Virus record (IMG/VR): IMGVR_UViG_3300035698_026482
Span: 64,001-128,000 of that record
DNA from: a virus
DNA length: 64,000 nucleotides
Direction: 5' to 3' (one strand)
The notes below the pieces were generated by a model. That model was not told where the DNA came from and ran no database searches. It saw only the letters and a program-made list of their open reading frames with translations. A program made the translations under genes and the position numbers. Every line of letters begins with the position of its first letter. The stretch's first letter is position 1. Of this stretch, positions 1,413 to 58,115 are shown piece after piece.

Positions 1413-4400
1413 TTATTGTACAAACTGAACTCCTGATGGCGTTACGATGAAATCGATTGCGATAAATTCAACAGCTCTTGTTGGAATCACTATGATTTTA
1501 CCGTTCATCTTATTGGCGTCGATATCCGCCTGAGTGTTGTTGGATTCATCCATGACGACCTTGAATCCCTCAATACCTTGTTGTGCCTGTACCAATCCGA
1601 GCAAGGGTGTGACTTGCGTGACAAATTTTGCACGAGTCTCCACATTATTTTGTTCGAATACGATTCGTCGAGCAATATCCAAAATCAAACGCTTAAGTTC
1701 AAGCATTAGACGACGAACGTTAACACGATCACGAGCCGATTTTGCAAACTGCAGAGTTTTCTGGCCGAAGATTGCAATACCCTCACGTGGGAAGCGCGCA
1801 ACTGGGTTGATGCGTGCCTCATAAAGAATGTCTCTGTCGCCACTATCTAGACGAACATCCAGACCCTTGACAAATTCAAGTGCGCCTCTGTTAAATCCAG
1901 CTGGTGCAAACCATGGATATGCAACGTTGTCATTAAATGATAGTGCTGCAAGGGCCGCAACCGATGACGGAACCTTAACGCGGCGATTATTCGTCACATC
2001 ATCAATCTTCACATCTGGGAAGTATGTTGCAACGTAATTGTTATCAATTGCACGTGACGCAAAATTGTCTGTGGTCTTACGAACATCTGGTTTCGCGGCG
2101 CTGTCTTCGAACAGGCGATTTCCGCTGTCATCGTATTGAACCATATCCATCACGTACATTGCAAGGCCGTAGTCACGCGTGCGTTGTGATGCGAAGTCGG
2201 TGATGAACGAGTCTCTAATACCTGGGATTGCAAGGATATTCGTATTGACTGTCAACTCATCAGTCATGATGCGCGTTGCCGTGCGATAACTGAAGATTGC
2301 GTTATTTGTTCTTCCCGTACCTGCTGGATTAACAGCTAATGACGTTGGGATGAATCCCGTGGCCGCACCGCCGTCTGTATCGGTGGATGCTGCCTTATCA
2401 TTTAGACGATTTGCATCGCTGTCCAAGATGTTAACGCCATCGAATCCGCCTGCCATTGGTGCAGTGAACTTCGTGAAATCAACGAACCTGTTGAATTCAA
2501 CCGAGCTTGTTAGCGATACAAGCGACGCGAACGTTAATCGATTTGTAATTGTCCCATCGGTTACAGTATATGAGGTGCCGTCTGGATTACCGTTTCTGAT
2601 ATATGCCGTTTCAAGCATGTGGGCAGACGGTGAACCAGTTAGGTGACTTATCGAAGTATTTGATAGCGCCACGCGTGCTAGCGTGAACTTGTTATCGTTT
2701 TGATCATCAGCCTGTGATCCCGTAACAGTAACATCAAGTTTTTCAAGACCTTGTAACTTACTGTATGCAATTGCAAGAGCATTTTTCTCTTGTACGCTAT
2801 TCGGATTAAGCGCATTATTATTACGCTCAAGCTTGGCGCCCCAGTAAAGGCGACCATCAACCAACTCCGTTACGCCAGGTGAACCTGCGAACACAGAAGA
2901 ATCAGCTGTACCCTTAGTGACCTTGAATCTGTATGGGAGAGGAGGAACAATTGCGCCAGACAGTGCCGCAGCTGCGCCTAATCCACCACCATTAAATGCA
3001 AGGCGCTCTGTACCGCCGACCTCATCTAATCCTGTGTCATTGGTTTTCAATGCAGCAGGACCGCGGAAGCCGAACGGAAGAATTGATTCAGGAAGCAAGA
3101 GCTTGTCAATACTCGAATTGAGCACGACGCGAACAATGTTTGATTTGTTGGCGAATTTACCATCAATCAAGAGGCGTCGCTCTTGATCATCATCTGCATC
3201 GAAATCATAGCGAACCCTCTTATCACCAATCATTTTGGCAATAAAGTTGTCAGCCTTTGGATTGAGCGTTACCTCTGGGAATTGCTCAAGGATTTCTGGA
3301 TTTTGATCCGTATCACCCCAAGCACGAATTTGAACAGAGAATGTTCCCCAGCTAGACTTAGGATCATCTGATTTACGAACTTGCGCTATCGAAACCTTAA
3401 ACTTGTTATTAGCGTAAGCGCCATCGTCAAGTGACTCGAAGTAAAACAGGTTATGTTCGGTTGTGCCATATGGCTGCGAGATGAACCATGGTGTACGAGG
3501 TGTGGTGTATCTCGTATCAAAATGACCGAATGCGTCTCGGAATGACATCGCTGTGTCACCAGACGTTTGTGATGTTGCCGCCGAACCAGACGCAATTGCA
3601 ATCGCTGCAGGACCAGCAACGACAGATGCAAGTTCATCATCAACGGCAAAATCAAGATAAAGCAAATGCTTTTCTGCGCCAAATCGCTCAGGATCTGTAT
3701 TAAGGATCTTTGAGATATAGTTCGGATTATCTGGATTAAGAGATGCAGACAAGGCGCGAAGACCGCCAAAGCCGTCAGACGTATCATACGTTGCATCGGA
3801 TGATGAAATGATTAGCTTGAATGTGCCAGCTGCATCACTTGTACCCAGTGCTGCAACGTCGTCCTCAGTTTCAAGTGCTGCCACAACGGCGCTGTCACCA
3901 TCAATAATATAAATTCGAGTGTCGTCGGCTGTAAAAATAGCAGCGCGAACAAGCTTGATATCCGAACCTGATCCTAGAGACGTCCCGTAACTGTCATTGT
4001 CGGAAAACATTGGCATTCCGAGCAACTCGTTTGAGCGCAAATCATGTGTTGCCAATAGAAATTGAACGGAGCCAAGATGACCGGCGCCCAGCGTTGCAAC
4101 AGTACCTGTAACAACAAAACCAGCATTGTTGACTTGACCCGTGAGTCGCGTCTTTTCAATGTGATCAAGTGTATCATTAGCGCCTGCGCCCAATACACGC
4201 ATGTAAGTTACGGCGTTCCTATTTTTAAGGAACTCACTTACTGCATATGGGCCGGCCTTATTAGGATCTAGGTCTCCAAACTTTGTACGAAAGTCTGGAA
4301 ATGAGCCAACTGTTACTGGCACGAACGCAGGGCCCTTTTGGGCTGTACCAATAATGCCGGCAGGCGTCCCAATCGGGGCCTGTACTCTTGCGGTCAGGTC

Positions 4401-4451
4401 GATTTCGCGCTCGAAAAATCCTGGTGATCTGAAAGTAAACTCTCTTGCCAT
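1413..4451 (-). CDS. Contractile tail sheath protein (T4 gp18-like), 1012 aa
   Basis: N-terminal SPGFFEREIDLT; C-terminal sheath motifs PWFAPAGFNRG, LYEARINPV, GQKTLQ, DRVNVRRL, PTRAVEFIAIDF. AAGGAG SD at 4461-4466. Confidence 0.93.
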   Translation of the reverse strand: MAREFTFRSPGFFEREIDLTARVQAPIGTPAGIIGTAQKGPAFVPVTVGSFPDFRTKFGDLDPNKAGPYAVSEFLKNRNAVTYMRVLGAGANDTLDHIEKTRLTGQVNNAGFVVTGTVATLGAGHLGSVQFLLATHDLRSNELLGMPMFSDNDSYGTSLGSGSDIKLVRAAIFTADDTRIYIIDGDSAVVAALETEDDVAALGTSDAAGTFKLIISSSDATYDTSDGFGGLRALSASLNPDNPNYISKILNTDPERFGAEKHLLYLDFAVDDELASVVAGPAAIAIASGSAATSQTSGDTAMSFRDAFGHFDTRYTTPRTPWFISQPYGTTEHNLFYFESLDDGAYANNKFKVSIAQVRKSDDPKSSWGTFSVQIRAWGDTDQNPEILEQFPEVTLNPKADNFIAKMIGDKRVRYDFDADDDQERRLLIDGKFANKSNIVRVVLNSSIDKLLLPESILPFGFRGPAALKTNDTGLDEVGGTERLAFNGGGLGAAAALSGAIVPPLPYRFKVTKGTADSSVFAGSPGVTELVDGRLYWGAKLERNNNALNPNSVQEKNALAIAYSKLQGLEKLDVTVTGSQADDQNDNKFTLARVALSNTSISHLTGSPSAHMLETAYIRNGNPDGTSYTVTDGTITNRLTFASLVSLTSSVEFNRFVDFTKFTAPMAGGFDGVNILDSDANRLNDKAASTDTDGGAATGFIPTSLAVNPAGTGRTNNAIFSYRTATRIMTDELTVNTNILAIPGIRDSFITDFASQRTRDYGLAMYVMDMVQYDDSGNRLFEDSAAKPDVRKTTDNFASRAIDNNYVATYFPDVKIDDVTNNRRVKVPSSVAALAALSFNDNVAYPWFAPAGFNRGALEFVKGLDVRLDSGDRDILYEARINPVARFPREGIAIFGQKTLQFAKSARDRVNVRRLMLELKRLILDIARRIVFEQNNVETRAKFVTQVTPLLGLVQAQQGIEGFKVVMDESNNTQADIDANKMNGKIIVIPTRAVEFIAIDFIVTPSGVQFVQ

Positions 4452-4533
4452 CTGGCGATACTCCTTTAGCTTCTCAAGGGAACTACGACATTAAATATGA
4501 GTCCTGTAACCCAAAAGCTACGATCTTGATCTT

Positions 4534-5784
4534 TCAAGGTTTCGTAATTCTCCCCAGGGTTAGTGCCTCAGTCGTTTTGCCAACCCTTTCACCCTTTTTA
4601 GAAACGCAAACAATTCGCGAAAACCTAGGGTCCCCTTCTTTGTGGGAGGCAAATGGATTAAATACGTATTGTTTTGTAACTAGGCCGTCGCCAACGCGAC
4701 CAGACTCAATTCTTCCATCAATACCAACATTTTCAACGTCACTTAATATCAAAGTCGGATCATCAGATCCGATAAGCGGCATTCGTCTTATAAATGATTC
4801 TACTAACGCGTCTGTTTCACAAACCTCAAAATCGATCTTTGGCGCTGACACGTAACTTCTTATTGAGCTTGCTTCGCCAGCGCCCATCGATGCGAGCGTC
4901 CATGCAGGAACCTTTACGGTTATTGTCGACTTGATCAATCGTTGCTGGTTAGTATAATCTTCAAAATTATCACCCGTATTCCAGGTGTCATCAAAATATG
5001 CAACGTACCAGTAGCCCTTGGTCGTTTCAATACGTGCTGACGGTATCTGACCAATTTCATACGCACTTAAAACGCGCTCGATAATTTGGTTCATTTCTTG
5101 AACATAATTTGTCCAGACAGTAATTTGGTAATTTATTGTGAAAAAATCAGGCGCTGGAATAACAATCGTCTCAACGATGTTATCGCCAATTGGGTTATCA
5201 AGCGCAGTTTGTAGTGGTTGTCCGCCCTTATCCCTACGCGATGCGACCTTGCCCTCTTTCGCCAAAGAGCCCGGCGTAGTTAAATCTTGAAGATTTTCTG
5301 ACGACGCTACATTATCTTGATTCTTTAAATTGAATCTGTTTCGTAACTGCTGATAACGGCGATCGCCCTTATGCAAGCGACGCCTAATAATAATTTCACC
5401 AGGATCAACGCCAAAAGCCAAATTAGGCTCAGAGTTTGACGTGATTTGCATTCGCTTAATTGCAATTACAGGTACAATTATAGCCCCGCGCCTATCACGA
5501 ATGGGACGACCAGATTTGGATAATGCAAACCTTTCACCACCAGCAAAAATTGTCGGTACTAACTTAATGTTATTTTGCATTTGAACCTGTAGGTTCAATG
5601 ACTTATCGAAAAAGTTAAATAACGCTTTATCAACGTCCTCAATCGTCGCCGGTGGAATATTGAAGTCATCAGGTATATTATTACCGCTATGTCCCTGCGA
5701 CACGAATGGAACACCCGTCTGTTGTTCAACAAGCGACTCACGCCTATTTGACGTGCCAATCGGTAATTTGCCATCAGTACTCAT
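4534..5784 (-). CDS. Tail completion/terminator protein (T4 gp15-like), probable
   Basis: TIEDVDKAL, PTIFAGGERF, PVIAIKR and INYQITVWTNYVQEMNQIIE segments; position between neck genes and sheath. Confidence 0.6.
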   Translation of the reverse strand: MSTDGKLPIGTSNRRESLVEQQTGVPFVSQGHSGNNIPDDFNIPPATIEDVDKALFNFFDKSLNLQVQMQNNIKLVPTIFAGGERFALSKSGRPIRDRRGAIIVPVIAIKRMQITSNSEPNLAFGVDPGEIIIRRRLHKGDRRYQQLRNRFNLKNQDNVASSENLQDLTTPGSLAKEGKVASRRDKGGQPLQTALDNPIGDNIVETIVIPAPDFFTINYQITVWTNYVQEMNQIIERVLSAYEIGQIPSARIETTKGYWYVAYFDDTWNTGDNFEDYTNQQRLIKSTITVKVPAWTLASMGAGEASSIRSYVSAPKIDFEVCETDALVESFIRRMPLIGSDDPTLILSDVENVGIDGRIESGRVGDGLVTKQYVFNPFASHKEGDPRFSRIVCVSKKGERVGKTTEALTLGRITKP

Positions 5785-5789
5785 TATTA

Positions 5790-6452
5790 TTACTCATCGT
5801 AAAAAGAGCTATCATCATCACGTGAACCAGCCCTTTTAGAAACTTCACGTGTGCCTTCGAGGGGTTCTTCTAAAACGCCCTTGCGAATCAAGTCACGAGT
5901 ATCGCCTGTTTCGCCTTCTTCATTTACAGCGAATCCACGCTGCTGATGAAATGTTTTTTGTGTGGCGTCTTCGTCTGAGAAGCCTTCCCATGTTGGTCCC
6001 AGAATTCTCGCTAGAAATTGATCTTGACGTGCTTGAACACAAGAAAGCTTCACACCCATCTCATATTCAATTTGCCCAAAAACTGTATCGGCGCCGACAA
6101 TGCCTGTAACTTCATAAAAGCTGTCGCCGTAACTAATAAAATCGCCCATTGCGACATTGATTTTCCTGTGAATCAAGTCTCGCGTGTGCAAATAAACTTC
6201 TAACTGTCGAATTGCGTCGTGACCGTGCACACCGGTCTGTAACTCTGATTGGTTCCATTTAACCAATGCTGCAACCTCGATTGGATGATCGAACATCTTC
6301 TGTGGTGCCTCTTGATATAAATCATGAACAAGTGTGCGTGCATAATCAATAGGATAGTAATAGACCTTTTGGCCGATTACATCTTTCATGATTTCGCGGG
6401 CTACGTCATTGAAAAAATCGAGCTCTCTCGACCCAACGAATAATCTAGGCAT
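5790..6452 (-). CDS. Head-tail connector/head closure protein (gp14-like), probable; start revised to MPRLFVG
   Basis: MPRLFVGSRELDFFND...IGQKVYYYPID...GDFISYGDSFYEV. The ATG at 6452 overlaps the upstream TAG by 8 nt, whereas the track start at 6542 overlaps by 98 nt. Identity inferred from synteny. Confidence 0.55.
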   Translation of the reverse strand: MPRLFVGSRELDFFNDVAREIMKDVIGQKVYYYPIDYARTLVHDLYQEAPQKMFDHPIEVAALVKWNQSELQTGVHGHDAIRQLEVYLHTRDLIHRKINVAMGDFISYGDSFYEVTGIVGADTVFGQIEYEMGVKLSCVQARQDQFLARILGPTWEGFSDEDATQKTFHQQRGFAVNEEGETGDTRDLIRKGVLEEPLEGTREVSKRAGSRDDDSSFYDE

Positions 6453-7011
6453 CGTCTGACCAGCTCCAAGTATGTCCGTATGCCGTCTTAGCATTACCCA
6501 TGGCAACGTTGCTAATTTTGCTACCTTGGCCGTCGACGGCATTCGCAGCGTCAGTCAAGGACATATAGGTCGATAATTCGCCTGTTTTAATATTTTTGCC
6601 AACGACGGCCTTACGACCGCGCGTAATTCCATGCATGATGGGCGCGTCGGATTTTTTTGTTTCGTCTCTTTTTCGACCCGTTCCGCCAACGTCGCCGTTG
6701 TATCCTTTTTCATGCGCATTGAATGCGTGAATATGCTTGACCTCTAAAAGGTCAAGCTCTTCATTCGTGCCTAAATGCTGTTCGACAACTTTAAAATCAA
6801 AGTTGCTAAATCCATGTTCACGCATCGCTTCATAAAGCTTAGACTTTTTGCCAGTAACAGCAGCCTTGATGTGTTCACGCCAGCGCGATCCCACAGGACG
6901 TGATGATTTACCAACATAACATTTGCCATCTAATTGGTTTTCAATGCAGTAAATGTAACCATACTGCTGCTCGATAGCAGAACTTGACACACCATTAAGT
7001 ATTGTGGCCAA
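6445..7011 (-). CDS. Free-standing GIY-YIG homing endonuclease with NUMOD1-like C-terminus
   Basis: GYIYCIENQLDGKCYVGKS...RWREH...ELDLLEVKHI...GYN; C-terminal SLTDAANAV...ISNVAMGNAKTAYGHTWSW. Confidence 0.85.
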   Translation of the reverse strand: MATILNGVSSSAIEQQYGYIYCIENQLDGKCYVGKSSRPVGSRWREHIKAAVTGKKSKLYEAMREHGFSNFDFKVVEQHLGTNEELDLLEVKHIHAFNAHEKGYNGDVGGTGRKRDETKKSDAPIMHGITRGRKAVVGKNIKTGELSTYMSLTDAANAVDGQGSKISNVAMGNAKTAYGHTWSWSDDA

Positions 7012-7038
7012 TACAAGATAGTGGATTAAGAACCAACG

Positions 7039-8235
7039 TTATCCTGTAAAGATGGATCCACCAGGCATAGGAATCATGCGTAACATTTTTAGCATGTTTT
7101 CAGCCTTTGCGGCATCTTTCTCTAGCAGCTTATCGTAAGTCGTCTCTTCGAGCAATGATGTTAGACGCTCTTTGATGCGCTCTTGATCGTCGCGCGCCTC
7201 TGTTTTTAGTGCCTCACCGTTAAGCGTAACTTCAGCGCCTGGAATCGGAATTCGATCGGTCTTTGTTCTGATAATTCCTAACAGCTCTTTTGAATATGCC
7301 AACGACATCTCTCGAATGAACTGTTTTCCAATTTCGTTTATTGAAGTATATGGAATAATTCCATACGGGACATTAGAAATACTGCTTACAGCTTGGACCG
7401 ACGCATCAATATCACCACCGGCGCCCGAGCCAGTGCCGGCACCGCCGTCAGCCGTTGGACTTTGGGCAAATGCTACGCGAACGAATAAATTACCGGGTGG
7501 CGACTTAGTAGGCAACGGCATAACACGTATATGTCCGTTACCAAAGATTTGATAGCTGTAATGTGAACGACGTACCTTGAACGATGTCGCCATCTGCTGA
7601 GCGCGTAAAATATCTTCAAATACTGGTAGTACGTAAAAGATAGTCTCGGGTGTGAAGCTTTCGAAAGAAAACTCGTTGTTCAAATAGTTGACTGCCGATG
7701 TGGAATCGAAAAAACGATATGCTGTCGTGGGTGAAAAATGAAACACTTCCATCACACGAAGCCTTTGTTTCGTAGAGTCAGGCTGTGTATCATACACGAC
7801 GCTACCAGATGAATCCAGAAGGTCCGTATGCAGATTGTAATCCTGTACCCCTACAGTCAATGGAAGCTTCCCCAGAACCTGCGTATATGTTCCTCCGAGG
7901 TTCGCATGAACAGCATACGGTGCGGCCTGTCTAAGAACAAATTCAAGCGTATTACGCGGATACAGATTTGATACGTCGATGCTACCCGTTGCTGATCCCA
8001 AATAATTTGTGAGATGTGACTTTGCCTGATATTGGTTAATGATGCTACCCCATTCTGAGGTTGCACGCTCCATACACGTCCAAATTTCTTTTTTGGTTAG
8101 CTCAACCTGCAATACATCGTCGCCAAGCATTCGCTTAACAAAAACGACCATGCCATCCGCATCATTTATGAAACTTGTGTCGGAGTCGTATAAACCAAAC
8201 GCCGTCGGCTGAACCGTATTTGCGAAAGAAACCAT
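7039..8235 (-). CDS. Neck protein (T4 gp13-like), probable
   Basis: VKRMLGDDVLQVELTKKEI N-terminus; KELLGIIRTK...IPIPGAEVTLNGEALKTEA C-terminus; located between capsid and tail-completion genes. Confidence 0.65.
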   Translation of the reverse strand: MVSFANTVQPTAFGLYDSDTSFINDADGMVVFVKRMLGDDVLQVELTKKEIWTCMERATSEWGSIINQYQAKSHLTNYLGSATGSIDVSNLYPRNTLEFVLRQAAPYAVHANLGGTYTQVLGKLPLTVGVQDYNLHTDLLDSSGSVVYDTQPDSTKQRLRVMEVFHFSPTTAYRFFDSTSAVNYLNNEFSFESFTPETIFYVLPVFEDILRAQQMATSFKVRRSHYSYQIFGNGHIRVMPLPTKSPPGNLFVRVAFAQSPTADGGAGTGSGAGGDIDASVQAVSSISNVPYGIIPYTSINEIGKQFIREMSLAYSKELLGIIRTKTDRIPIPGAEVTLNGEALKTEARDDQERIKERLTSLLEETTYDKLLEKDAAKAENMLKMLRMIPMPGGSIFTG

Positions 8236-8240
8236 TTGAT

Positions 8241-8248
8241 ATAACTAT
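8241..8248 (-). promoter_or_regulatory. Candidate late-promoter motif ATAGTTAT
   Basis: 5 nt upstream of the neck gene ATG; the identical octamer occurs at 15487-15494 and 36722-36729. Confidence 0.45.
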
Positions 8249-8259
8249 CCCCGAAGTTA

Positions 8260-8328
8260 TTACAGTTCGTTGATTAGCTTATCAAGCTCGTCGAGGGCAA
8301 TAGCGCTTGGCTTCTTAACGCTTTTCAT
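8260..8328 (-). CDS. Possible 22-aa small protein MKSVKKPSAIALDELDKLINEL
   Basis: ATG begins 2 nt after the stop of 8330..8887 and the ORF fills the intergenic gap; amphipathic helix pattern. Below the track length cutoff. Confidence 0.3.
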   Translation of the reverse strand: MKSVKKPSAIALDELDKLINEL

Positions 8329-8329
8329 T

Positions 8330-8887
8330 TTAATCACGCGTTGCCTGATAATTTACGCCTCGAGGCACCTTCCGGGCGATGTCATCAATTGCTGTTCCTG
8401 GCTCAAAGATTTGTGGCGCGTAGGTTAGCGTTGTTTCAGGCGCCATGGGTGGCTCGGGCTTTATCGGCTTAAACTCGAGTATTCGCGGTTCAACGTTCAT
8501 CCTACTTGAGAAATTCGCGAATCTCCAAAATGGACTCATTGCGACGCCGCCGCCTTCCATCGATTCAAATGGAAACTCGTGCTGCATTAATTCTGCATGT
8601 ATCCACACTCGCTTACAGTGTGCATGAAGATCCTGTGCGGGTAATTGGGCATCAATATTGACTATTTTTTCAATTAAATCAATTTCGATAGTTGCGTCAC
8701 CTACGAATAAAGTGAAGCCTAGCCCATCATTGAGCTTGTAATTTACTTCATGAATATCTGGTGCGGTCGACATGAGTTCTTTTTCTTGTTCATACATATC
8801 CAGCCACAATACTTTAGTGTCTCTCACGACGTCACGTATGTCTTCTAGTGAAGGGAAGTATGTACGTAATAATATACAATAAATCAA
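8330..8887 (-). CDS. Hypothetical protein (start uncertain)
   Basis: 185-aa ORF filling the gap on the coding strand; the annotated start abuts the terminator U-tract, so the true start may be downstream. Confidence 0.55.
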   Translation of the reverse strand: MIYCILLRTYFPSLEDIRDVVRDTKVLWLDMYEQEKELMSTAPDIHEVNYKLNDGLGFTLFVGDATIEIDLIEKIVNIDAQLPAQDLHAHCKRVWIHAELMQHEFPFESMEGGGVAMSPFWRFANFSSRMNVEPRILEFKPIKPEPPMAPETTLTYAPQIFEPGTAIDDIARKVPRGVNYQATRD

Positions 8888-8890
8888 CAG

Positions 8891-8920
8891 AAATAAAAAA
8901 GGGACCCCGAAGGGTCCCTA
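8891..8920 (-). terminator. Rho-independent terminator, copy B
   Basis: Sense AGGGACCC-TTCG-GGGTCCCT followed by TTTTTATTT; 8-bp stem with a C(UUCG)G loop. Confidence 0.9.
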
Positions 8921-8939
8921 ACGCTGTTGGGCTTGCGTC

Positions 8940-9308
8940 TTAAACTTTGATTACTTTGTTGATGATGCTTCTTACAGCTTCACGAATTACAGCTTCATCC
9001 ATGCTGGCGAGTCCTTCTTTATCCAAAAGCTCTTGAAACTTGATTAATCGTGTATTGCTGATCGTGGCTCGCCCAGTACCTGTTTTCTCCCAAAAAACAA
9101 ACTTTGAATTTGTCTGTGCAGGATCAACATCAAAAAAACGCTGCGATTTATGCCCGCTACGATTAAATTGAACTTCGACGGCCCAAGAACCCGGAAATAC
9201 ATCTGAGGGTTTCACAGCTCGTACGCGCATTATGCGATAGCCTGCGTGTTGGCCTGTTAACGCCTGCTCGCCCTTCCGCTTGGTTAGATAGTGGCCCTTG
9301 AGCTTCAT
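8940..9308 (-). CDS. Hypothetical 122-aa protein (start revised to MKLKGHY)
   Basis: ATG at 9308 avoids overlap with 9322..11109; C-terminal MDEAVIREAVRSIINKVI helix. Confidence 0.6.
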   Translation of the reverse strand: MKLKGHYLTKRKGEQALTGQHAGYRIMRVRAVKPSDVFPGSWAVEVQFNRSGHKSQRFFDVDPAQTNSKFVFWEKTGTGRATISNTRLIKFQELLDKEGLASMDEAVIREAVRSIINKVIKV

Positions 9309-9321
9309 ACGCTTAATTACG

Positions 9322-11109
9322 TTATGCCAATTCAAACTTGGCGACGCCGCAATCATAAATGCGAAAAAGCCCACGTGATAACGCAACGTCACGTTCTGTT
9401 AGTCCGTTCTTTTTGTCTGCTACACATCTTGATCGATGAAGTCGTTGACCACCGCCGTGTGTCCAAAAGAAACCGTATTTTGTCTCATCAAGCTTCTTGA
9501 ACCCAACGTTAACATATCCTGCACCTTCGCCATGTCTGAGATGCACATACGTCATCAATTTTGGCTTACTGGTGTATATGGCTTCGATCTTGGCACGTTT
9601 TATTAACTTGCCTAGCCCTCCTCGTACAGAGACATTTAATAGCGATGCAAATCGTTTAACTTCAAGATGATCTGGAAAGCGTTGGCCCTGTCTTGGCTTG
9701 CCTAGCGTCATAACCGATACTAGACAATGTTCCTCTGAAGTGAATAGACCAAAGCGCAGTGAACATGGCGTCGATCCGTCAAGATGATTGGTGTTTAAAA
9801 ATTCTTTAGCGATTTCTGTTGATATTGGCGCCACATAACATTTGCGCGCGTTTGCTTTTGCTAGTGGTTTGCCTAGTCGTCCTCTTATCATTGATTCAAC
9901 GATGTCACGCTTTTGTAACCACTCGTCTTCAAACACGTGAAATACGTTGATACCCGCATTTCTGCATTCGTCTAGTTTTGTTCGCATATAATCCTGGCCA
10001 CAACCGTTAGCTTCACAATGCCACCATAGTCCATTATATTCGACGCCAAAATTCATTGACGGTACCCATATATCAATTTCCTTACCACCTAGCACGGATC
10101 GATTATTGCGCTCAACATCAAATCCAAGCGATTCAATAAATGCGGCAACTTCTTCTTCACCAATTGATCTGCCCGTAGGATAACATTTTTGACATCGACC
10201 GATATCACGATCTAGATTCTCAAGCGTCACATCAAATTCAATTTGACATTGTTGACATCTTGTTTTTAGAGGCGTCTTGCGTGTTTCATATTCTTCGTAC
10301 GACGATAATACAACGTATTCTTGAGGTTTTCGCGTTGTTCTAATCGTGAATTCTTCTAGCGACAGGCGCTTGTAGTCAGCCATCTTCTTTTTGCTTTCGT
10401 CTGTATGACTCTTTCCGAAAAAGGGATTGCCAGTGTCGGCATATCGTTTTGATTGTTCGACAAGGTATTCGATACCGTCGCTTTTTGTCTTTCCGTTATA
10501 TGGATTTGCAATGGCGCCGCCTTTTTTGCCACCTTCGCTTTCGGCAACATGTGCGTGGTTCTTACAGTATTTCTTGAATTTGGTTACATCAAGCCGTGTA
10601 AACTCATTACATCCATCAAAATGACATACGGGCCTAACACCTCTATAATGATGCTTCGTGATATACCCGTCGAATTTCATGCCGTGTGTGTTACCTAGAT
10701 GTACAGATAGAGGATGGTGTCCCACAAATCCATCACACCCGCATTCTTTACATGTTATATTTTCAATTGCCAAAGTCTGCTGACGGCGCCTGTGCTGGGT
10801 GGCCGACTTTTTTGTTCTACGATTATGTCCAGCAGCAAATGCTGCGTAATGTCCACCTGGATTCCATCTGGTAAACGCTGCATTATTCACATCCATAATG
10901 CACTTGGGACATGCGCAGCCAGGTATCTTACCACCAAAAATGATATTGCGATGATATTGCTCCCGCTTTATTCCGTCATGAAGTGAGCGCAAATGATCTG
11001 CTAGTGTCTTGCCGTATTTTCCATTTTTTGCAGGTGGAATGCTTTCACTGCACAAATGACATCTTGATTCGAATTCATCGCCAAAGTTATCATATGCAGG
11101 ATGTTTCAT
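9322..11109 (-). CDS. Zn-finger + Vsr-like PD-(D/E)XK endonuclease + Mom-like GNAT fusion, copy 1 (Hef-like homing endonuclease type)
   Basis: C2H2 fingers (CHLC...HLRSLH; CKEC...HLGNTH), NUMOD3-like HTDESKKKM, nuclease EIDIWVPSMNFGVEYNGLWWH...FEDEW, then AKEFLNTNHLDG..FGLF..LVSVMTLG..LEVKRFAS..TYVHLRHGEGAGYVNVGF. Confidence 0.8.
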   Translation of the reverse strand: MKHPAYDNFGDEFESRCHLCSESIPPAKNGKYGKTLADHLRSLHDGIKREQYHRNIIFGGKIPGCACPKCIMDVNNAAFTRWNPGGHYAAFAAGHNRRTKKSATQHRRRQQTLAIENITCKECGCDGFVGHHPLSVHLGNTHGMKFDGYITKHHYRGVRPVCHFDGCNEFTRLDVTKFKKYCKNHAHVAESEGGKKGGAIANPYNGKTKSDGIEYLVEQSKRYADTGNPFFGKSHTDESKKKMADYKRLSLEEFTIRTTRKPQEYVVLSSYEEYETRKTPLKTRCQQCQIEFDVTLENLDRDIGRCQKCYPTGRSIGEEEVAAFIESLGFDVERNNRSVLGGKEIDIWVPSMNFGVEYNGLWWHCEANGCGQDYMRTKLDECRNAGINVFHVFEDEWLQKRDIVESMIRGRLGKPLAKANARKCYVAPISTEIAKEFLNTNHLDGSTPCSLRFGLFTSEEHCLVSVMTLGKPRQGQRFPDHLEVKRFASLLNVSVRGGLGKLIKRAKIEAIYTSKPKLMTYVHLRHGEGAGYVNVGFKKLDETKYGFFWTHGGGQRLHRSRCVADKKNGLTERDVALSRGLFRIYDCGVAKFELA

Positions 11110-11254
11110 GATTATATTATATTGTTAATTAACATGGATGTATCAATAACGACGAAAATAATATGGTTACATATAGAAGACAAATGACTCTTTGCGGAAG
11201 GCAAATGAGACCAAAATGCTATGAATTGTCAACTATCGATGTCTAAATTTAGGC

Positions 11255-11283
11255 AAATAAAAAGGGACCCCGAAGGGTCCCTA
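11255..11283 (-). terminator. Rho-independent terminator after the major capsid gene, copy A
   Basis: Same hairpin and U-tract as 8891-8920, differing by one A in the A-run. Confidence 0.92.
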
Positions 11284-11311
11284 GTTAATCTAAGTTGTTG
11301 TAATCGTTAAC

Positions 11312-13210
11312 TTAGATGACGTTGAGGTCCATGACGTTAACAACGCCGTAGAAGTCAGAACGTACCATTTGCTTGCCGTAGCGAGTCATAACACCTTTGC
11401 GCGGTGTGAAATCGTCCGGGCCGTAAATGGTTGGCGTGACGATAAGTGGCACGTACGGAGCGTACACGTAGCCTGTCTCAAGGTAGCTGCCACCCTTGTA
11501 ACCGATAAGAATACGGTTGCGCGGGAAGAAGGGATCCTTGTACACAGTGAAACGGTTGGAAACCGTGCCAATTGCCTCTGCGCCAATCACGAAAGGAGCA
11601 GCTGCTTGACCCGAGCCATCAAACTTAATGGATGGCTTGTACATCACCGAGCTCTCCAGAATCGTGCAAACGTCCGGTGAGGTGACAAGGAAGTTCGCAG
11701 AACCTCTCAATGTCTTACGATGAATCTCATTGGCTGCATCGATGATGGTCTCAATCAAGACACCATACCACTCTGCCACGTTGCCCGTGAAGCTTGGTCC
11801 TGTCGAAAGGGTGTTTGCGAGATTCTGAACGTTACCGTTCGTCTTATCAACAAATACGCCTGGCTTACGTGACCAGTAACGGATTGCTCCATTAGCTTGT
11901 CGGACAAGATCACCAAGAACTTCGCGGTCGATCTCAAGAGCGATCTGTTGCGAGAGGATCTGGGTAAGCTCAACCTCTGCGTCCAGCGAGTGGTACGCGT
12001 TGAGGTCCTGAGCAAGCTCAGGGGTCCAACGGGCACGTAGCTTACGGGAATCAGCTGTTACAGGAATAGCTTCAATCTTGATATCGATCTCTGGGATAAC
12101 AGCCGAAGGCGGGTTACCGAAATCAGACTCGAATGATGGGATGGTCAAAGACGTTCCATCATTGGAGTTAACATCAAACGAATCGCGAAGCATGGTGCTT
12201 AACTTGGAGGTACCTTCAGCTGGGACAGGTAGCGCACCACCATTTGCCAGACGAAGAACAAGTTGAACGTGCGTGCCGTTCTCTGCATTCTCAGTGAAGT
12301 TGACACCGTCGAAATCACCGCGCTTGTTAAGGCGACGGAGGTTTAGGACGCCACGACCATCTTGATAGCTTGAACCCCAAGCCAATGCAGACCCATTGGA
12401 TCCAAGATCGGTCAATGTTACTTGGCTGATTGCTGATCCACGAAGGTCAGCGCTTGGGATTGCTGCTGTCAACGCCGATGCTGACACATGCACGAATGCA
12501 ACGTCAAAGGTACCAACCTCAAGTGCTGTCACAAGATCAGCATCGAAGTACAAGTGGCGACCATTGGAGCCCGTTGCTCCGACTGCATCCGTAAGTGCTG
12601 AGCCCGAAAGCCAAGCGCCATTAGTTCCACCGAAGTGACCGACATCGTTGTTCAACGTAAACGCCGAACCAGAGTGGACCTTGGTGTAACCAATACCTGC
12701 ATGATCATACATGCCGCCGGCTGCAAGGGAGCCAGATTGAACTCCCTTACCTGTTGGTTGACCATAAATGGATGAACCAGCAGCGTACGTTGCGTCTGTT
12801 CCTGCAGTTGCAGTTGCATCAGGACCATAATCACCACCGACATTACTGCCGTAAGTGTAATCCAGATAGAAAAGCAAGCCAGAGGGAAGACTCATTGGTT
12901 GAATCGAAACCAGTTCATTGGCGACGAGGCCACCGAAAACCTTACGGACAATCGGGAAAGCGATATTAGAGAAACCGCGAATCTGACCACTCGATGTGAG
13001 TGCACCACCGCCTGTCGAAAGAGCATTGCTCTCTCTAAGGACTTGCGCCATCTGGTTTTCCAGAAGGCGAGCCATGGTTGATCGCTTACGCGATGAAAGG
13101 TTCTTAAGGAGGCCTGTGCGACCCCATTTCTCGACGAGACGTGAATCTTCGTCGGCGACGTTACGCTCGCGAATACCTTCGGCGAGCTGTGATAGTGAAA
13201 ACTTACGCAT
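11312..13210 (-). CDS. Major capsid protein (T4 gp23-like, HK97 fold), 632 aa
   Basis: LVEKWGRTGLL, VSIQPMSLPSGLLFYLDY, RKLRARWTPELAQDLNAYH, YVYAPYVPL, FTPRKGVMTRYG; followed by a strong terminator. Confidence 0.96.
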   Translation of the reverse strand: MRKFSLSQLAEGIRERNVADEDSRLVEKWGRTGLLKNLSSRKRSTMARLLENQMAQVLRESNALSTGGGALTSSGQIRGFSNIAFPIVRKVFGGLVANELVSIQPMSLPSGLLFYLDYTYGSNVGGDYGPDATATAGTDATYAAGSSIYGQPTGKGVQSGSLAAGGMYDHAGIGYTKVHSGSAFTLNNDVGHFGGTNGAWLSGSALTDAVGATGSNGRHLYFDADLVTALEVGTFDVAFVHVSASALTAAIPSADLRGSAISQVTLTDLGSNGSALAWGSSYQDGRGVLNLRRLNKRGDFDGVNFTENAENGTHVQLVLRLANGGALPVPAEGTSKLSTMLRDSFDVNSNDGTSLTIPSFESDFGNPPSAVIPEIDIKIEAIPVTADSRKLRARWTPELAQDLNAYHSLDAEVELTQILSQQIALEIDREVLGDLVRQANGAIRYWSRKPGVFVDKTNGNVQNLANTLSTGPSFTGNVAEWYGVLIETIIDAANEIHRKTLRGSANFLVTSPDVCTILESSVMYKPSIKFDGSGQAAAPFVIGAEAIGTVSNRFTVYKDPFFPRNRILIGYKGGSYLETGYVYAPYVPLIVTPTIYGPDDFTPRKGVMTRYGKQMVRSDFYGVVNVMDLNVI

Positions 13211-36748: not shown

Positions 36749-38449
36749 TCATACATCAATCGTATACACCGTGTTAGTATCGCCCCAAACTCGGCAAACA
36801 CGTGCCTGTTGGGCAACGGTTGCTTGTGACATATCTTTTTTTGCCTTGATATGAAAACGATCAAGCCTTGTAACAAAGTCTGTCCACCAGAATCGAGGCT
36901 GCGTTTCATGTATTAGCTTATATCCTGAAGACGGATACCCGTCACCTGAGGAGATCCTCATATCGGCATATGTGATTAATCCTATTCTTTCATTTTCGCG
37001 AGCTATTTTTAGTGCATGCTTCGTTAGCTTAGACAGGCCACCAATAACTGCACAATCACGCTTAATCGCAAACCTAGCAACTTCGTAACGTTTTTCATAT
37101 ATCTTTTTTTGTGGGGAACGTAGCGATATCGCACAAACAAGTTCATCATCATATACTAGTCCATACGCAGATTTAGCACGAATGTCTCCTGCAATATGAT
37201 TCTCGTCGAAGAAAGAGCGACGCTGTTCTCTTGTTAGTTTCACCAATTCACACTTTCTAGCAAAGATTTTTCTATCAGCATCGCCAAGTCGATATCTTAT
37301 CATCGAGGTAATAAGATCTTTTTTGTCGCGCCACTCGTCTTCAAAAATTGTAATGACACGATATCCAAGCTTTTCAGCTAGCTTACGTTTTAGCTGTGTT
37401 CGCCTACTGTCTGCTTCAACAGCTTCACTATGCCAGTATAATCCATGATATTCGATTGCTAATTTGTTATTGGGAAATACAATGTCAAGTTCATATGGGC
37501 GAATTAGCTGCCAATTAGATACTTCAGGTTTATATCCAAGTGCTAAGAACGTATTGGCGATATCTTGTTGTCCAATAGAAACAGACTGCTGTCTATCACA
37601 TAACATGCATCGCGGCGCTAATAACACGCTGCTAAGAACCCTTGCATCACTCTTACCACATTGTGCGCAGGCTACGTTAACAGGCATCATTATTCCTGTA
37701 TATGTCTCAAGCGTAACTGTCGGGGTTATGGCAATTGTTTCGTTCTCGGCAACGATTGCTAATCTTTTTGATAGCTCTTCATATGAAAGTCGATTACTGT
37801 CGCTTATTTTTTTCGCAGTAAGTCTAAGTTGAGCTTGACCTTCTTTCGTTTTATAGAACTTTGATTGCTCTTGTCCACGAGTCTTATGAAAATCTATACC
37901 GTCAGGGGAAGAAGCCCATTTTGCAACGCTAATAGCAACCTGCTGCTTTTTTAATTTGCCAACATCCGAGTCCCAAAATTGCTTAAGAGTAAGACTTCGA
38001 CGCTTATTAATTGCGCGGCCGTATTCAGTTTTGTATAGCTCCTTACACGCCTTTGAACGCTTTGCTATTAGCGTTTGACCTTCAGCTGTCTTATAAAATT
38101 GACGCATAGCGAAAGAGCGCTTTTTGGCGGCCAGCTTTACAGCGTTAGAGCCACTCAGCGCGCTTGATAGATTAAGACGATGATTAGCAGTTAAAGGCTT
38201 CCCTTTACGTCGTTTCGAAATACTTTCCCGCATGTCAGTAGTGTAATGGCCACTGACCAATGACATGAATTTGATGCCATTATGAAATCTTGTATACTGT
38301 CCACATCCACACAAGCACATTGGGCGTATGCCGCTGTGCACATGCTTAACAACATAATCTTCATAGGAAATGTCTAGGTGACATTTACGTAGATGATGCT
38401 TAAGGGCACAACGTGATTTCGTTAATAACCCGCATTCCAAACATTTCAT
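36749..38449 (-). CDS. Zn-finger + Vsr-like PD-(D/E)XK endonuclease + Mom-like GNAT fusion, copy 2
   Basis: CLEC...HLRKCH, CLCGCG, CAQC..CMLC; ELDIVFPNNKLAIEYHGLYWH...FEDEW; RRSFFDENHIAG..YGLVYDDELVCAISL..YEVARFAI..ITYADMRISSGDGYPSSGY. Confidence 0.8.
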   Translation of the reverse strand: MKCLECGLLTKSRCALKHHLRKCHLDISYEDYVVKHVHSGIRPMCLCGCGQYTRFHNGIKFMSLVSGHYTTDMRESISKRRKGKPLTANHRLNLSSALSGSNAVKLAAKKRSFAMRQFYKTAEGQTLIAKRSKACKELYKTEYGRAINKRRSLTLKQFWDSDVGKLKKQQVAISVAKWASSPDGIDFHKTRGQEQSKFYKTKEGQAQLRLTAKKISDSNRLSYEELSKRLAIVAENETIAITPTVTLETYTGIMMPVNVACAQCGKSDARVLSSVLLAPRCMLCDRQQSVSIGQQDIANTFLALGYKPEVSNWQLIRPYELDIVFPNNKLAIEYHGLYWHSEAVEADSRRTQLKRKLAEKLGYRVITIFEDEWRDKKDLITSMIRYRLGDADRKIFARKCELVKLTREQRRSFFDENHIAGDIRAKSAYGLVYDDELVCAISLRSPQKKIYEKRYEVARFAIKRDCAVIGGLSKLTKHALKIARENERIGLITYADMRISSGDGYPSSGYKLIHETQPRFWWTDFVTRLDRFHIKAKKDMSQATVAQQARVCRVWGDTNTVYTIDV

Positions 38450-39752: not shown

Positions 39753-40676
39753 TTATGCTATCCCCTCTACAACATCAACAATTTGTTGATCAGTCATTGA
39801 ATTAAGTTTTTTATCAGTTAAACGTAACATTTTTTTTCCGTTATGAGCGCACCATTCAATTTGTTGAGCGTCAAGTAATTGTTTGGCGTTTATCGCATAT
39901 GCCTGTGTGCCGGGCTTTGCATTGACTGAGCCGCCTTCGCCGTGCCAATATACACCATCGACCTGAATGTATAACTCGTGATGCTTTATATACATGTCAA
40001 TATCCCATCCGTTCAAGCGTACATGAGTTTCTACATAGCTATCGCCGTACGCCGACCTAAGCACCTGTACAACACGGCGCTCTACCCATGATTCATTAAA
40101 TGTACCATTTTTGCGTTTTGTAGCATGAGACTTTTTTCTAATCGTAGTGCTCTGCATTGGACTATAGACACCATGGCGATGTTGCATAGTCCGATGATAC
40201 TTCTCAGAAACAACAGGATTATCATGAATCGGCGCTGGTGATCCATATTTCTCGATGCGAGTCTCAATCATCTTATCTTTTGTTGCCTTAAGCTTGGTCG
40301 GATGACATCCGTACTTATTATCAAATACCTTCTTAATCTTCTTTTGAACAGTAGTTGATGCAATTGCATGTTCGTGACCATAGCGTTCAAGGTTTGTGGC
40401 TTTCGTTTTTGTGCGAACAGCTGCATTTTGATGCGGATAATCAACGCCATAACGCTCACGACAAGTTATAACGCATTTGACGTGTTTTGCGGCGCCCGTT
40501 TTTTGGGCAACATTTGAACATTTCCGCGAACAAAAATGCAAGTCTTGTGACACAAAATGCACAGAATACTTCTTCATAAACGATTCGCTGCATGAATCGC
40601 ATGTCATTACCGACGTTTTTTTCGGTCTGGACATTCCCCAGCGCTCGCTGGGGCTTATTAGAGTTTTAGTGTACAT
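39753..40676 (-). CDS. Free-standing Vsr-like PD-(D/E)XK homing endonuclease (no Mom-like domain)
   Basis: CDSC..FCSRKC zinc finger; repeated E(R/K)YG helices; SWVERRV...DIDMYI...IQVDGVYWHG. Confidence 0.75.
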   Translation of the reverse strand: MYTKTLISPSERWGMSRPKKTSVMTCDSCSESFMKKYSVHFVSQDLHFCSRKCSNVAQKTGAAKHVKCVITCRERYGVDYPHQNAAVRTKTKATNLERYGHEHAIASTTVQKKIKKVFDNKYGCHPTKLKATKDKMIETRIEKYGSPAPIHDNPVVSEKYHRTMQHRHGVYSPMQSTTIRKKSHATKRKNGTFNESWVERRVVQVLRSAYGDSYVETHVRLNGWDIDMYIKHHELYIQVDGVYWHGEGGSVNAKPGTQAYAINAKQLLDAQQIEWCAHNGKKMLRLTDKKLNSMTDQQIVDVVEGIA

Positions 40677-52655: not shown

Positions 52656-54302
52656 TTAAGTGTTCCCCGCAGAGCTAGCAATTGCATCGCTGCATGCAGA
52701 CCATGACGCGACCCAAAGCATATTATGGTTTGCGCTACCTGTGCAGTCAAGTGCAATTTCAGATCCAGTAATTACAAGATTCGTGCTCCAAGAGGTCGCC
52801 GTCGGTAGAGGTATTTCGGCTGTATATGATGATGAAATAATTGGTTTACTTAGATAATCGTATGTATAATCCGCATTCGCATCATCGGCATGCAAAAACA
52901 TCGCAAAATCTCTATTCCATCCACTTAGGCGCATCCTACGCGTATAAATAGCTTCAACCTGTCTTTGCTTAAGTGATCCTGTACTTCGCGCGAATGCAAC
53001 ACCCTGGATTTTAATATCGATCCATGCAAGCGCCCCATGATTCGGAAATACAGATCTTAATGTCGCCAGCCGCGTACCAGCTGCAATAAAGCTGCCCGTA
53101 CCGGTTGTTTCTTGAAAGATCGCTTCTGTAAATGATCCCGTTACTCTACATTGAGGAAATTCCCACCACTCTTGCGTGTTGCTAGCATTACCTCCATCGC
53201 TGGCAAGAACGCCAAATCCATTTGACGTTGTACCACCGGCGGCGACAAAATTTGTACGCTTAATATGAAAGCTTGGATAAGCCAAAAATGCGTATGTGTT
53301 AGCGGCGTTTGTTACTCCGCCTTCAATGCTTGCAATATTGCTTCCTGCCACACCGGGATTTAACCACAAATGACCTACATTTCCCGTATGAGCTTGTGTT
53401 TCTAGACCAGGCTGGACAGACGTGTCACCCCAGGGACCATGAATGCTATCGCCCAGTTCGGGCGGAGTATTGCGAACATGCAATGACGATGATGCTGTCC
53501 ACGCTGGCGCGCCACTTGAATATTCAACGTCGAATAACGTTACAACAGGTGTATCAATCGTTGCGGGTGCGGTCGAGCCATCGCCCGCAAACGGCGTTTC
53601 AATCTTTAGATTTGAAACATATGTTCGTGCCATACCAAAGTCGCCTTGAAACGTAGTCCCGACAAGATTTGTTGGCATGCCGGTCGACGACCGTCCCGAT
53701 AAACCAGCTTGAATAAATACGTTTCCACCGTACCCATCTGGTGTAGACGCTGAGGTGTGTATTCTACCACCCGTAATCAATGCGTTGCCTGCTGTTGAGC
53801 CCCCCTCGGTTGAACCGCCGCCTAGCCGTGCATCACCGCCGTCACCAGTTAGTGTACCAGACCCGCCTAAAAATGATGCAGCAGCTGCGTTTGCCGAAGT
53901 TGCAGTTGATCCGCCTATTATTGTTACAGGATGCGCAGCGTTAAGATCACCTGTTTCAACGCCAAGACCTCTAATAATACTACCGCCATTAAGTGTAGGA
54001 TGGTAGCCCTCTGAGTGTTCATCTGCCGCCAACACTGCTGCCCAATCCTGTGTGGTGGCGCCAATAATCGAACCACAAACGATAAGATTACCTGAAATAA
54101 CAGATGTCGAGTCACCACATAGTGAAAACAGTGGACCTGTCACCGTTAATACTGCGTCACATGGACTAATACCTACACGAAAGTGAGTAGGCGTTATAAC
54201 TTGCCTAATCTTGCCCGTATTTTTATCAGTTTGAACCAGAAATTTCTGGCCCAAAACGTCCTTCATTCGGGTTACTGATCTTGTTGCATTAGCTAATGGC
54301 AT
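52656..54302 (-). CDS. Tail fibre/spike-like Gly-rich protein
   Basis: GG-x4-GG-type repeats (GGSTAT..GGSGTLTGDGGDARLGGG..GNALITGG..GGNVFIQAG). Confidence 0.6.
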   Translation of the reverse strand: MPLANATRSVTRMKDVLGQKFLVQTDKNTGKIRQVITPTHFRVGISPCDAVLTVTGPLFSLCGDSTSVISGNLIVCGSIIGATTQDWAAVLAADEHSEGYHPTLNGGSIIRGLGVETGDLNAAHPVTIIGGSTATSANAAAASFLGGSGTLTGDGGDARLGGGSTEGGSTAGNALITGGRIHTSASTPDGYGGNVFIQAGLSGRSSTGMPTNLVGTTFQGDFGMARTYVSNLKIETPFAGDGSTAPATIDTPVVTLFDVEYSSGAPAWTASSSLHVRNTPPELGDSIHGPWGDTSVQPGLETQAHTGNVGHLWLNPGVAGSNIASIEGGVTNAANTYAFLAYPSFHIKRTNFVAAGGTTSNGFGVLASDGGNASNTQEWWEFPQCRVTGSFTEAIFQETTGTGSFIAAGTRLATLRSVFPNHGALAWIDIKIQGVAFARSTGSLKQRQVEAIYTRRMRLSGWNRDFAMFLHADDANADYTYDYLSKPIISSSYTAEIPLPTATSWSTNLVITGSEIALDCTGSANHNMLWVASWSACSDAIASSAGNT

Positions 54303-54314
54303 ATAGTTTCACCA

Positions 54315-57236: not shown

Positions 57237-57239
57237 AAA

Positions 57240-58115
57240 TTAGTCCCCGATAGCCTTATAGCGCGTCAGACCACCAAATGCAATTGAATTGGTGCCACAT
57301 GGCGAATCATGATAAACGCTACCGGCGGTTGTTGATGTATTTCTAGATAATGCTTCAGAGACGGTTGATCCCGACAACTGCATTAACGCTGTCATAAAAT
57401 GTTCGCGCCCAGAACCTGACATAATTGTGCTCTTCGCAAGTGATGGTGTAACACCCCTAGTTTCGTCAAATGGTACTATCAACGTTTTTATTTCAGGACG
57501 TGGCACTGTTGCTTCAGGAAGATCTGATCCCGTTGTATTAATAATAATCCTAGGAAACGATGCTGCCAAGGTACCCACGTCGATAAACGGGCTCAATACA
57601 GATGGAGCATCGAAAGTTTTTTCCTGCAATACATTGTCACCCGCACGGTGACGATTGATATTACCTCCAGTAAATTGGCCACGAAATTGCTTTGTTACGA
57701 TATCCCGACCTGGATATAACACATTATTTCTAATTTCAAATGTTTCAATTGCTCCGTCAAACGACTCAATTAATCCATCATCGTCGCCAGCGCCTACGAA
57801 TGCATCTGTAACAGAAATACCACCACTCGCGAAGTGATCAATTACAGCTTCAATGTTAAATTGACTCTTATTATCAGCAAACGGATCACCATCGGAATAC
57901 ATTCCTGGCACACCAAATACTTGTCTTATAAGATGATGATTAAGGTTGCCTGCCCAAATCTTGGGTTGTGTACCACAATAACGGTGCTTGTTGGACCTCA
58001 GGGAAACACCCTGACGTACACAATCAATCAGCGAAGTATCAATACCACCAGACGCGGGTACATCGTCGGTTCTATTATTCGATTTTTCAACGTATGGTGG
58101 ATGTACGGCAGCCAT
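57240..58115 (-). CDS. Hypothetical virion protein
   Basis: 291 aa; TAATG coupling to the upstream gene. Confidence 0.7.
   Translation of the reverse strand: MAAVHPPYVEKSNNRTDDVPASGGIDTSLIDCVRQGVSLRSNKHRYCGTQPKIWAGNLNHHLIRQVFGVPGMYSDGDPFADNKSQFNIEAVIDHFASGGISVTDAFVGAGDDDGLIESFDGAIETFEIRNNVLYPGRDIVTKQFRGQFTGGNINRHRAGDNVLQEKTFDAPSVLSPFIDVGTLAASFPRIIINTTGSDLPEATVPRPEIKTLIVPFDETRGVTPSLAKSTIMSGSGREHFMTALMQLSGSTVSEALSRNTSTTAGSVYHDSPCGTNSIAFGGLTRYKAIGD

Follow-up and report, generated by a model that had tools for sequence, protein, structure and literature searches.

A Hef-type homing endonuclease with a Mom-like C-terminal domain downstream of the capsid gene of a large T4-like virus: a candidate cut-and-protect element

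Can a single polypeptide both cut DNA and mark the genome that encodes it? This question is raised by a gene on the minus strand at positions 9322-11109 of a 64,000-nucleotide stretch of viral DNA (the window, i.e. positions 64,001 to 128,000 of the IMG/VR record IMGVR_UViG_3300035698_026482). The record comprises 182.8 kb, is estimated to be 53% complete and represents a distant T4-like large phage with a Gp23-type capsid. According to the list of open reading frames (ORFs) and its translation, the gene, here termed copy 1, is complete and encodes 595 amino acids (aa) plus a stop codon. We are nearly certain that its product is a free-standing homing endonuclease of the Hef type, belonging to the Hef-like branch of the Vsr-like (EDxHD) family. 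The whole protein matches phrog_3339 ("homing endonuclease", E 3.4e-72) and phrog_559 (E 9.3e-67), and "bacteriophage Hef type homing endonucleases" were assigned to the EDxHD family by Taylor et al. 2011. A diverged paralogue of the same architecture, claimed in an earlier note that was made from the sequence alone, does exist at 36749-38449 on the minus strand (copy 2, 566 aa; tblastn E 8.7e-44). It is ~27% identical to copy 1 and matches phrog_3339 with an E value of 3.9e-64.

The earlier note had read the protein as zinc fingers followed by a Vsr-like nuclease and a Mom-like GNAT domain, a layout that is borne out. A first zinc-finger unit (residues 15-97; 10819-11067, on the minus strand like all parts of the gene) consists of a CxxC...HxxxxH finger followed by a CxCxxC...GH element. 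CxxC motifs are located at residues 17 and 67, and the family consensus reads CxxC..H....H...C.C.C...GH. The second unit (residues 118-186; 10552-10758), with a CxxC at residue 120, is an internal repeat of the first, and tblastn aligned its residues 118-173 to the N-terminus of copy 2 in a further, separate hit; a weak match to ROS/MucR zinc fingers, covering residues 98-160, stays under the Pfam cut-off. Further downstream in the protein follow a NUMOD3 DNA-binding motif (PF07460, residues 220-244; 10378-10452; 27.3 bits against a cut-off of 20.4, E 3.5e-6) and, N-terminal to the nuclease, a four-Cys zinc ribbon of the form CQQC...CQKC (residues 284-311; 10177-10260). The CxxC motifs of this ribbon, at residues 285 and 306, are kept as CxxC...CxxC in the family consensus, and strands are modelled at residues 280-295. 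The Vsr-like (EDxHD-type) nuclease domain occupies residues 316-405 (9895-10164) and is followed by the Mom-like GNAT domain of 190 aa (residues 406-595; 9325-9894). In the full-length AlphaFold model, the predicted local distance difference test (pLDDT) score is 84-95 at residues 11-90 and mostly 90-98 at residues 250-595, including 86 at residues 311-320 and 94-98 in the nuclease blocks between 321 and 400; the linkers are disordered. Among full-length relatives, mean pairwise identity is 39.5% in the Mom-like domain, 36.9% in the nuclease and 26.4% in the N-terminal region.

There is very little room for doubt that the C-terminal domain is homologous to Mom of phage Mu. Comparing a multiple sequence alignment of 182 Hef C-terminal domains with one of 111 Mom-family proteins by hhalign yielded a probability of 96.1% and an E value of 2.9e-9 over 145 columns; the control with the Mom alignment reversed gave an E value of 0.35. 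A narrow Mom hidden Markov model matches individual Hef C-terminal domains with E values down to 7e-9. The AlphaFold model of the domain (pLDDT 95.7) adopts a GNAT fold, and a Foldseek search of the PDB ranked the Mom crystal structure, 8BV8, first, so that the comparison with Mom by profile and by Foldseek, as suggested in the earlier note, gave a match in both respects. The domain also lies nearer to Mom than to other GNATs. Structural matches in BFVD span the range from Hef-like proteins to standalone viral Mom, a "putative homing endonuclease" of phage PA5oct being a close match with a template modelling (TM) score of 0.84. The by-eye pairings of the earlier note (NTNHL with QTKHY, FGLF..LVSVMTLG with LGVF..LVGVLQWG, LEVKRF with MELNRM and TYVHLRHG with SFADERCG) were reproduced by hhalign, and the Mom strings quoted there agree with the Mu Mom sequence from NC_000929. 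Direct Pfam scans remained below threshold, and recognition of the homology thus required profile-profile and structure comparison: the Pfam Mom family (PF25680, cut-off 27.1 bits) scored 12.3 bits with the whole protein and 14.5 bits with the domain alone, the partial matches (E 0.03-0.14) spanning only the first 58 profile positions. No match to Pfam Mom was obtained with copy 2, for which weak matches to Vsr, DUF559, MTES_1575 and the GNAT family Acetyltransf_1 (E 0.016) were recorded. A single-sequence scan of copy 1 gave a weak hit to PHROG 1384 ("Mom-like", E 1.5e-4), and an hmmsearch of PDB sequences with the family profile listed GCN5 and other GNATs, but not 8BV8.

The active site of the domain was compared with that of Mom. 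The earlier note treated Mom as an established GNAT-fold enzyme that hypermodifies adenine and blocks restriction, an account that needs an update: according to Silva et al. 2026, Mom moves glycine from Gly-tRNA(Gly) onto adenine N6 in double-stranded DNA, the product being N6-carbamoylmethyl-adenine. In that study R111, S124 and R151 were essential, D149, H58, Y59 and Y159 were important, and a helix-turn-helix (HTH)-like insertion between beta6 and beta7 (Mom residues 175-209) was required. Among the 182 Hef C-terminal domains, the equivalents of H58 and R111 are invariant (H and R in 182/182; H442 and R486 in copy 1), R151 is kept in 162 (R525 in copy 1) and Y159 in 173 (Y532). The position of S124 is occupied by Ser in 90 and by Gly in 63 domains, that of D149 by Asp in 167 and by His in eight. 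Copy 2 retains all six Mom residues considered here, copy 1 four of them. The His in copy 1 at the position where Mom and copy 2 have Asp, already pointed out in the earlier note, is indeed present (H523), and it is accompanied by a second deviation, Gly at the S124 position (G500). All five closest relatives of copy 1 (48-58% identity in the C-terminal domain) carry "YVHLRHG" together with the Gly, which suggests a selected variant at clade level rather than a decaying site. Of the two possibilities raised before, an altered or an inactive copy 1, the former is thus the likelier, and the His/Gly site may alter the chemistry or the donor. W48, which serves Mom dimerisation, and W181 are not conserved in Hef C-terminal domains. 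Between modelled strands 140-145 and 177-182 of the domain lie ~31 residues with one helix (167-173) and conserved Arg residues; this insertion sits where that of Mom does, and the hhalign alignment extends only to Mom residue 193.

The cutting half of the protein was assessed in the same manner. A profile of 106 family members matches I-Bth0305I (PDB 3R3P) with an E value of 1e-6, the copy 1 nuclease also has a weak Pfam match to MTES_1575, and the nuclease motifs quoted in the earlier note (EIDIW, EYNG.WWH and FEDEW) are found in copy 1 and align to I-Bth0305I. In the direct alignment, D346, N359 and H364 correspond to D196, N208 and H213 of I-Bth0305I, and copy 1 has every one of the family-conserved residues E344, D346, E357, H364, K378, D395, E396 and W397. 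With regard to the EDxHD motif, these three positions are matched and the upstream Glu is present, while the fifth position (D222) differs: its equivalent is His in 88 of 99 Hef-type relatives, Thr in copy 2 and Met in copy 1 (residue 375; 9985-9987), where an Asp is found two residues upstream. The Met is shared by the clade of copy 1 within the motif D-R-M-R-x-K. Judged from its residues, the nuclease site appears essentially intact. Changes in the nuclease site and in the Mom-like site occur together in the clade of copy 1. Across 87 family members, scoring the integrity of one site against that of the other gave groups of 60, 17, 6 and 4 members, with no clear association.

From these features a cut-and-protect mechanism can be proposed. 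The variable N-terminal zinc fingers and NUMOD3 would choose the DNA target, which the Vsr-like domain would cut in related phage genomes lacking the gene, and recombinational repair would then copy the gene into the cut genome. The Mom-family GNAT, being part of a DNA-bound protein, would attach an acyl or aminoacyl group to adenine N6 at or near the recognition site, and this modification would spare the site in the carrier's own genome. Catalytic activity of the C-terminal domain on nucleic acid is probable in our view, favoured by invariance at the H58 and R111 positions, by strong conservation throughout the domain and by the retention of the copy 1 substitutions across its clade. That its purpose would be immunity to the protein's own nuclease is somewhat less likely than not. 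To the explanation as a whole, a homing endonuclease with an active Mom-family transferase that cuts and protects, we assign a chance that falls slightly short of even. That Hef-type endonucleases are single-chain cut-and-protect elements, drawing on an aminoacyl-tRNA or acyl-CoA donor, and that the clade of copy 1 installs a different adduct or uses a different donor, strikes us as rather doubtful. The Hef of phage U5 has been reported to cleave nrdB. Hef is also said to cleave the DNA of its own phage in vitro; if so, immunity would have a source other than the target sequence. Several observations weigh against an obligatory protective role: I-Bth0305I functions without a GNAT domain; two of the residues required in Mu Mom are missing from copy 1; and 17 of the 87 relatives scored above combine an intact nuclease with a deviation at one position of the Mom site, the two sites showing no clear link.

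The genomic context bears on the mobility of the element. Copy 1 is located directly downstream of the major capsid gene, and two closer relatives, with capsids 84-87% identical, have an orthologue at the same site that is only ~50% identical (positions 3874-7677 of locus L002 and 1-2553 of locus L003, compared with 9322-13210 of the window). Either the Hef gene evolves much faster than the adjoining capsid gene, or it was replaced by homing. We further inspected 80 more distant relatives (capsid 60-65% identical), 55 of which have at least 2.5 kb of sequence downstream of the capsid gene. A Hef-type gene with a Mom-like domain, at most 4 kb downstream of the capsid gene and on the same strand, is present in 13 of these 55 and absent in 42. 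A terminator scan revealed an intrinsic-terminator hairpin just after the capsid gene (11263-11282, minus strand), which is the upstream copy of a direct repeat, and an identical second hairpin at 8900-8919 (minus strand). This 20-nt, GC-rich element with a T-run, AGGGACCCTTCGGGGTCCCT, has only these two copies in the 182.8-kb record; the pair brackets a 2,363-bp unit consisting of copy 1 and an ORF at 8940-9392. The repeat may be the footprint of a cassette insertion at the capsid terminator. The ORF at 8940-9392 was considered as a conserved partner of copy 1 and rejected, as no homologue was detected in L002, L003 or the 80 capsid loci. At 6445-7011 (minus strand), 2.3 kb downstream of copy 1, we noticed a free-standing homing endonuclease gene of the GIY-YIG (SegE-like) type, which shares the virion-gene cluster with copy 1.

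Altogether, six intact Hef-Mom copies are present in the record, with a mutual identity of only 27-36%. The four copies outside the window (5638-7247, 7957-9576, 53089-54869 and 55664-57442 in G000:C1) are 28-36% identical to both window copies; Asp stands at the D149 position in all four, and Ala at that of S124 in one of them. The location downstream of the capsid gene, the orthologues there, site polymorphism, the repeat and the neighbouring GIY-YIG gene together form the usual signature of free-standing homing endonuclease genes. In spirit, the selfish element suspected in the earlier note is therefore upheld by the presence/absence polymorphism downstream of the capsid gene and by the six copies per record. 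A 307-aa ORF at 39753-40676 (minus strand), 1.3 kb upstream of copy 2, matches DUF7487 (E 4e-19). It covers only the N-terminal DNA-binding part of PHROG 3339, is devoid of a nuclease or Mom-like part and may be a truncated or a different endonuclease-related gene.

The family is by no means confined to this record. A search with the C-terminal domain retrieved 327 records of cultured phages (Vibrio, Campylobacter, Acinetobacter, Klebsiella, Escherichia and others), which are labelled "Hef" or "Hef-like homing endonuclease" or, in several Acinetobacter phages, "putative nuclease/acetyltransferase protein". In a library of 1.8 billion proteins, the domain occurs in 10,990 clusters at 50% identity, where it is nearly always C-terminal in proteins of 450-650 aa. 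Two short entries were checked as possible standalone forms and discarded: P0120 is cut short where its contig ends, and P0183 (184 aa) belongs to a full metagenomic Hef gene (positions 2344-3555 of locus L085) that is split by one in-frame stop, so that the gene caller listed the Mom-like domain as a protein of its own. Both being artefacts, they provide no evidence for a separate two-gene version within the Hef-Mom subfamily, and short "standalone" database entries of the Mom-like domain call for caution. BFVD does contain standalone viral GNAT/Mom proteins that are more distantly related.

How does the cut-and-protect mechanism compare with other functions of the Mom-like domain? The domain could be non-catalytic, serving as a DNA-binding, base-flipping or oligomerisation module that helps target recognition or clamping. 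Copy 1, lacking the Ser and Asp equivalent to Mom S124 and D149, would fit such a role, as would the ~20% of intact-nuclease relatives that deviate at one Mom-site position and the conserved basic residues R556 and R559 in the beta6-beta7 insertion, an element proposed to bind DNA in Mom. However, invariance at the H58 and R111 positions in all 182 domains, combined with 89-95% conservation at those of D149, R151 and Y159, is the pattern of an active site and not just of a binding surface. The copy 1 substitutions are moreover kept across the clade, and no other part of the protein is as well conserved as this domain. We consider a non-catalytic role unlikely.

Conversely, the domain may be active but confer its benefit through general anti-restriction: copies with different DNA-binding heads would modify the phage genome at many sites by momylation and weaken restriction by the host, paying in this way for the upkeep of selfish genes. 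Iyer et al. 2021 offered general anti-restriction as their other reading and noted that multiplicity may help to beat several host systems; Mu Mom guards against many restriction enzymes, and the six copies of this record, whose N-termini diverge strongly, would be in line with it. A pure anti-restriction enzyme, however, needs no nuclease, as Mu Mom illustrates, whereas the Mom-like domain was seen only fused to one, the standalone forms checked being artefacts; tethering to a sequence-specific head also predicts few modified sites. We regard general anti-restriction as improbable, too. Even less probable is a GNAT acting on a substrate other than DNA (aminoacyl-tRNA, as in TacT-type toxins, a protein or a small molecule), which would point to host takeover instead of homing: profile comparison and Foldseek both place the domain closest to Mom, which modifies DNA, and the domain is covalently joined to a DNA-binding nuclease.

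As for novelty, the fusion and the cut-and-protect logic are already published for jumbo phages (Iyer et al. 2021). The self-protecting modifier fusion suspected in the earlier note holds with respect to architecture and Mom homology, the idea itself having been put forward before. Copy 1 as a gene adds nothing new in kind; specific to this record is the coexistence of a canonical copy 2 with a variant whose His/Gly pair is conserved across its clade and whose nuclease is altered at one position. Our literature search turned up neither an experimental test of the Mom-like domain nor anything relevant that links Mom, homing endonucleases and GNAT. Given ~11,000 clusters at 50% identity and hundreds of cultured phage genomes, the domain is widespread. 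If it modifies DNA, many large phages would bear sparse, site-specific adenine adducts that are missed by bulk nucleoside analysis, and the immunity of homing endonucleases would rest on modification rather than on sequence. The cut-and-protect reading, if true, would reveal sparse DNA adenine modifications as a class that is widespread in large phages but has so far gone unmeasured. The Gly-tRNA(Gly) mechanism and the crystal structure of Mom (Silva et al. 2026) make a functional test straightforward.

Among known systems, copy 1 shares its domain order with the Hef-like endonucleases of T4-related phages, of Campylobacter (CP220 group), Acinetobacter, Vibrio and Klebsiella phages and of jumbo phages. 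It also shares with the Hef-like endonucleases of PHROG 3339 and 559 the full-length profile match, the multiple copies and the intergenic location beside conserved genes. Unlike those of cultured phages, it has a duplicated zinc-finger unit, its C-terminal domain is only ~35% identical to any of theirs, and its clade carries His/Gly at the D149 and S124 positions together with the nuclease Met. I-Bth0305I, the EDxHD prototype, likewise has a NUMOD-type DNA-binding region followed by a Vsr-like nuclease, but is intron-encoded, comprises 266 aa and is devoid of a GNAT domain. With Mu Mom (8BV8, PF25680) the C-terminal domain has in common the GNAT fold, the beta6-beta7 insertion and the equivalents of H58, R111, R151 and Y159; in contrast to Mom, to which it is 16-17% identical, it is fused to a nuclease rather than standalone, and its insertion of ~31 aa holds one helix where Mom has a 35-aa HTH-like element. 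A precedent comes from Iyer, Anantharaman, Krishnan, Burroughs and Aravind (Iyer et al. 2021), who described fusions of Mom with REase-fold nucleases in group 2 jumbo phages, five of them in PA5oct, and proposed that the nuclease attacks other DNA, the phage's own being shielded by momylation. Copy 1 shows the same domain pairing and would follow the same logic of protection and restriction. Whereas those authors framed the fusions as a conflict akin to restriction-modification, we frame copy 1 as a homing endonuclease on grounds of site polymorphism, NUMOD3 and membership in the Hef family; the two framings are compatible.

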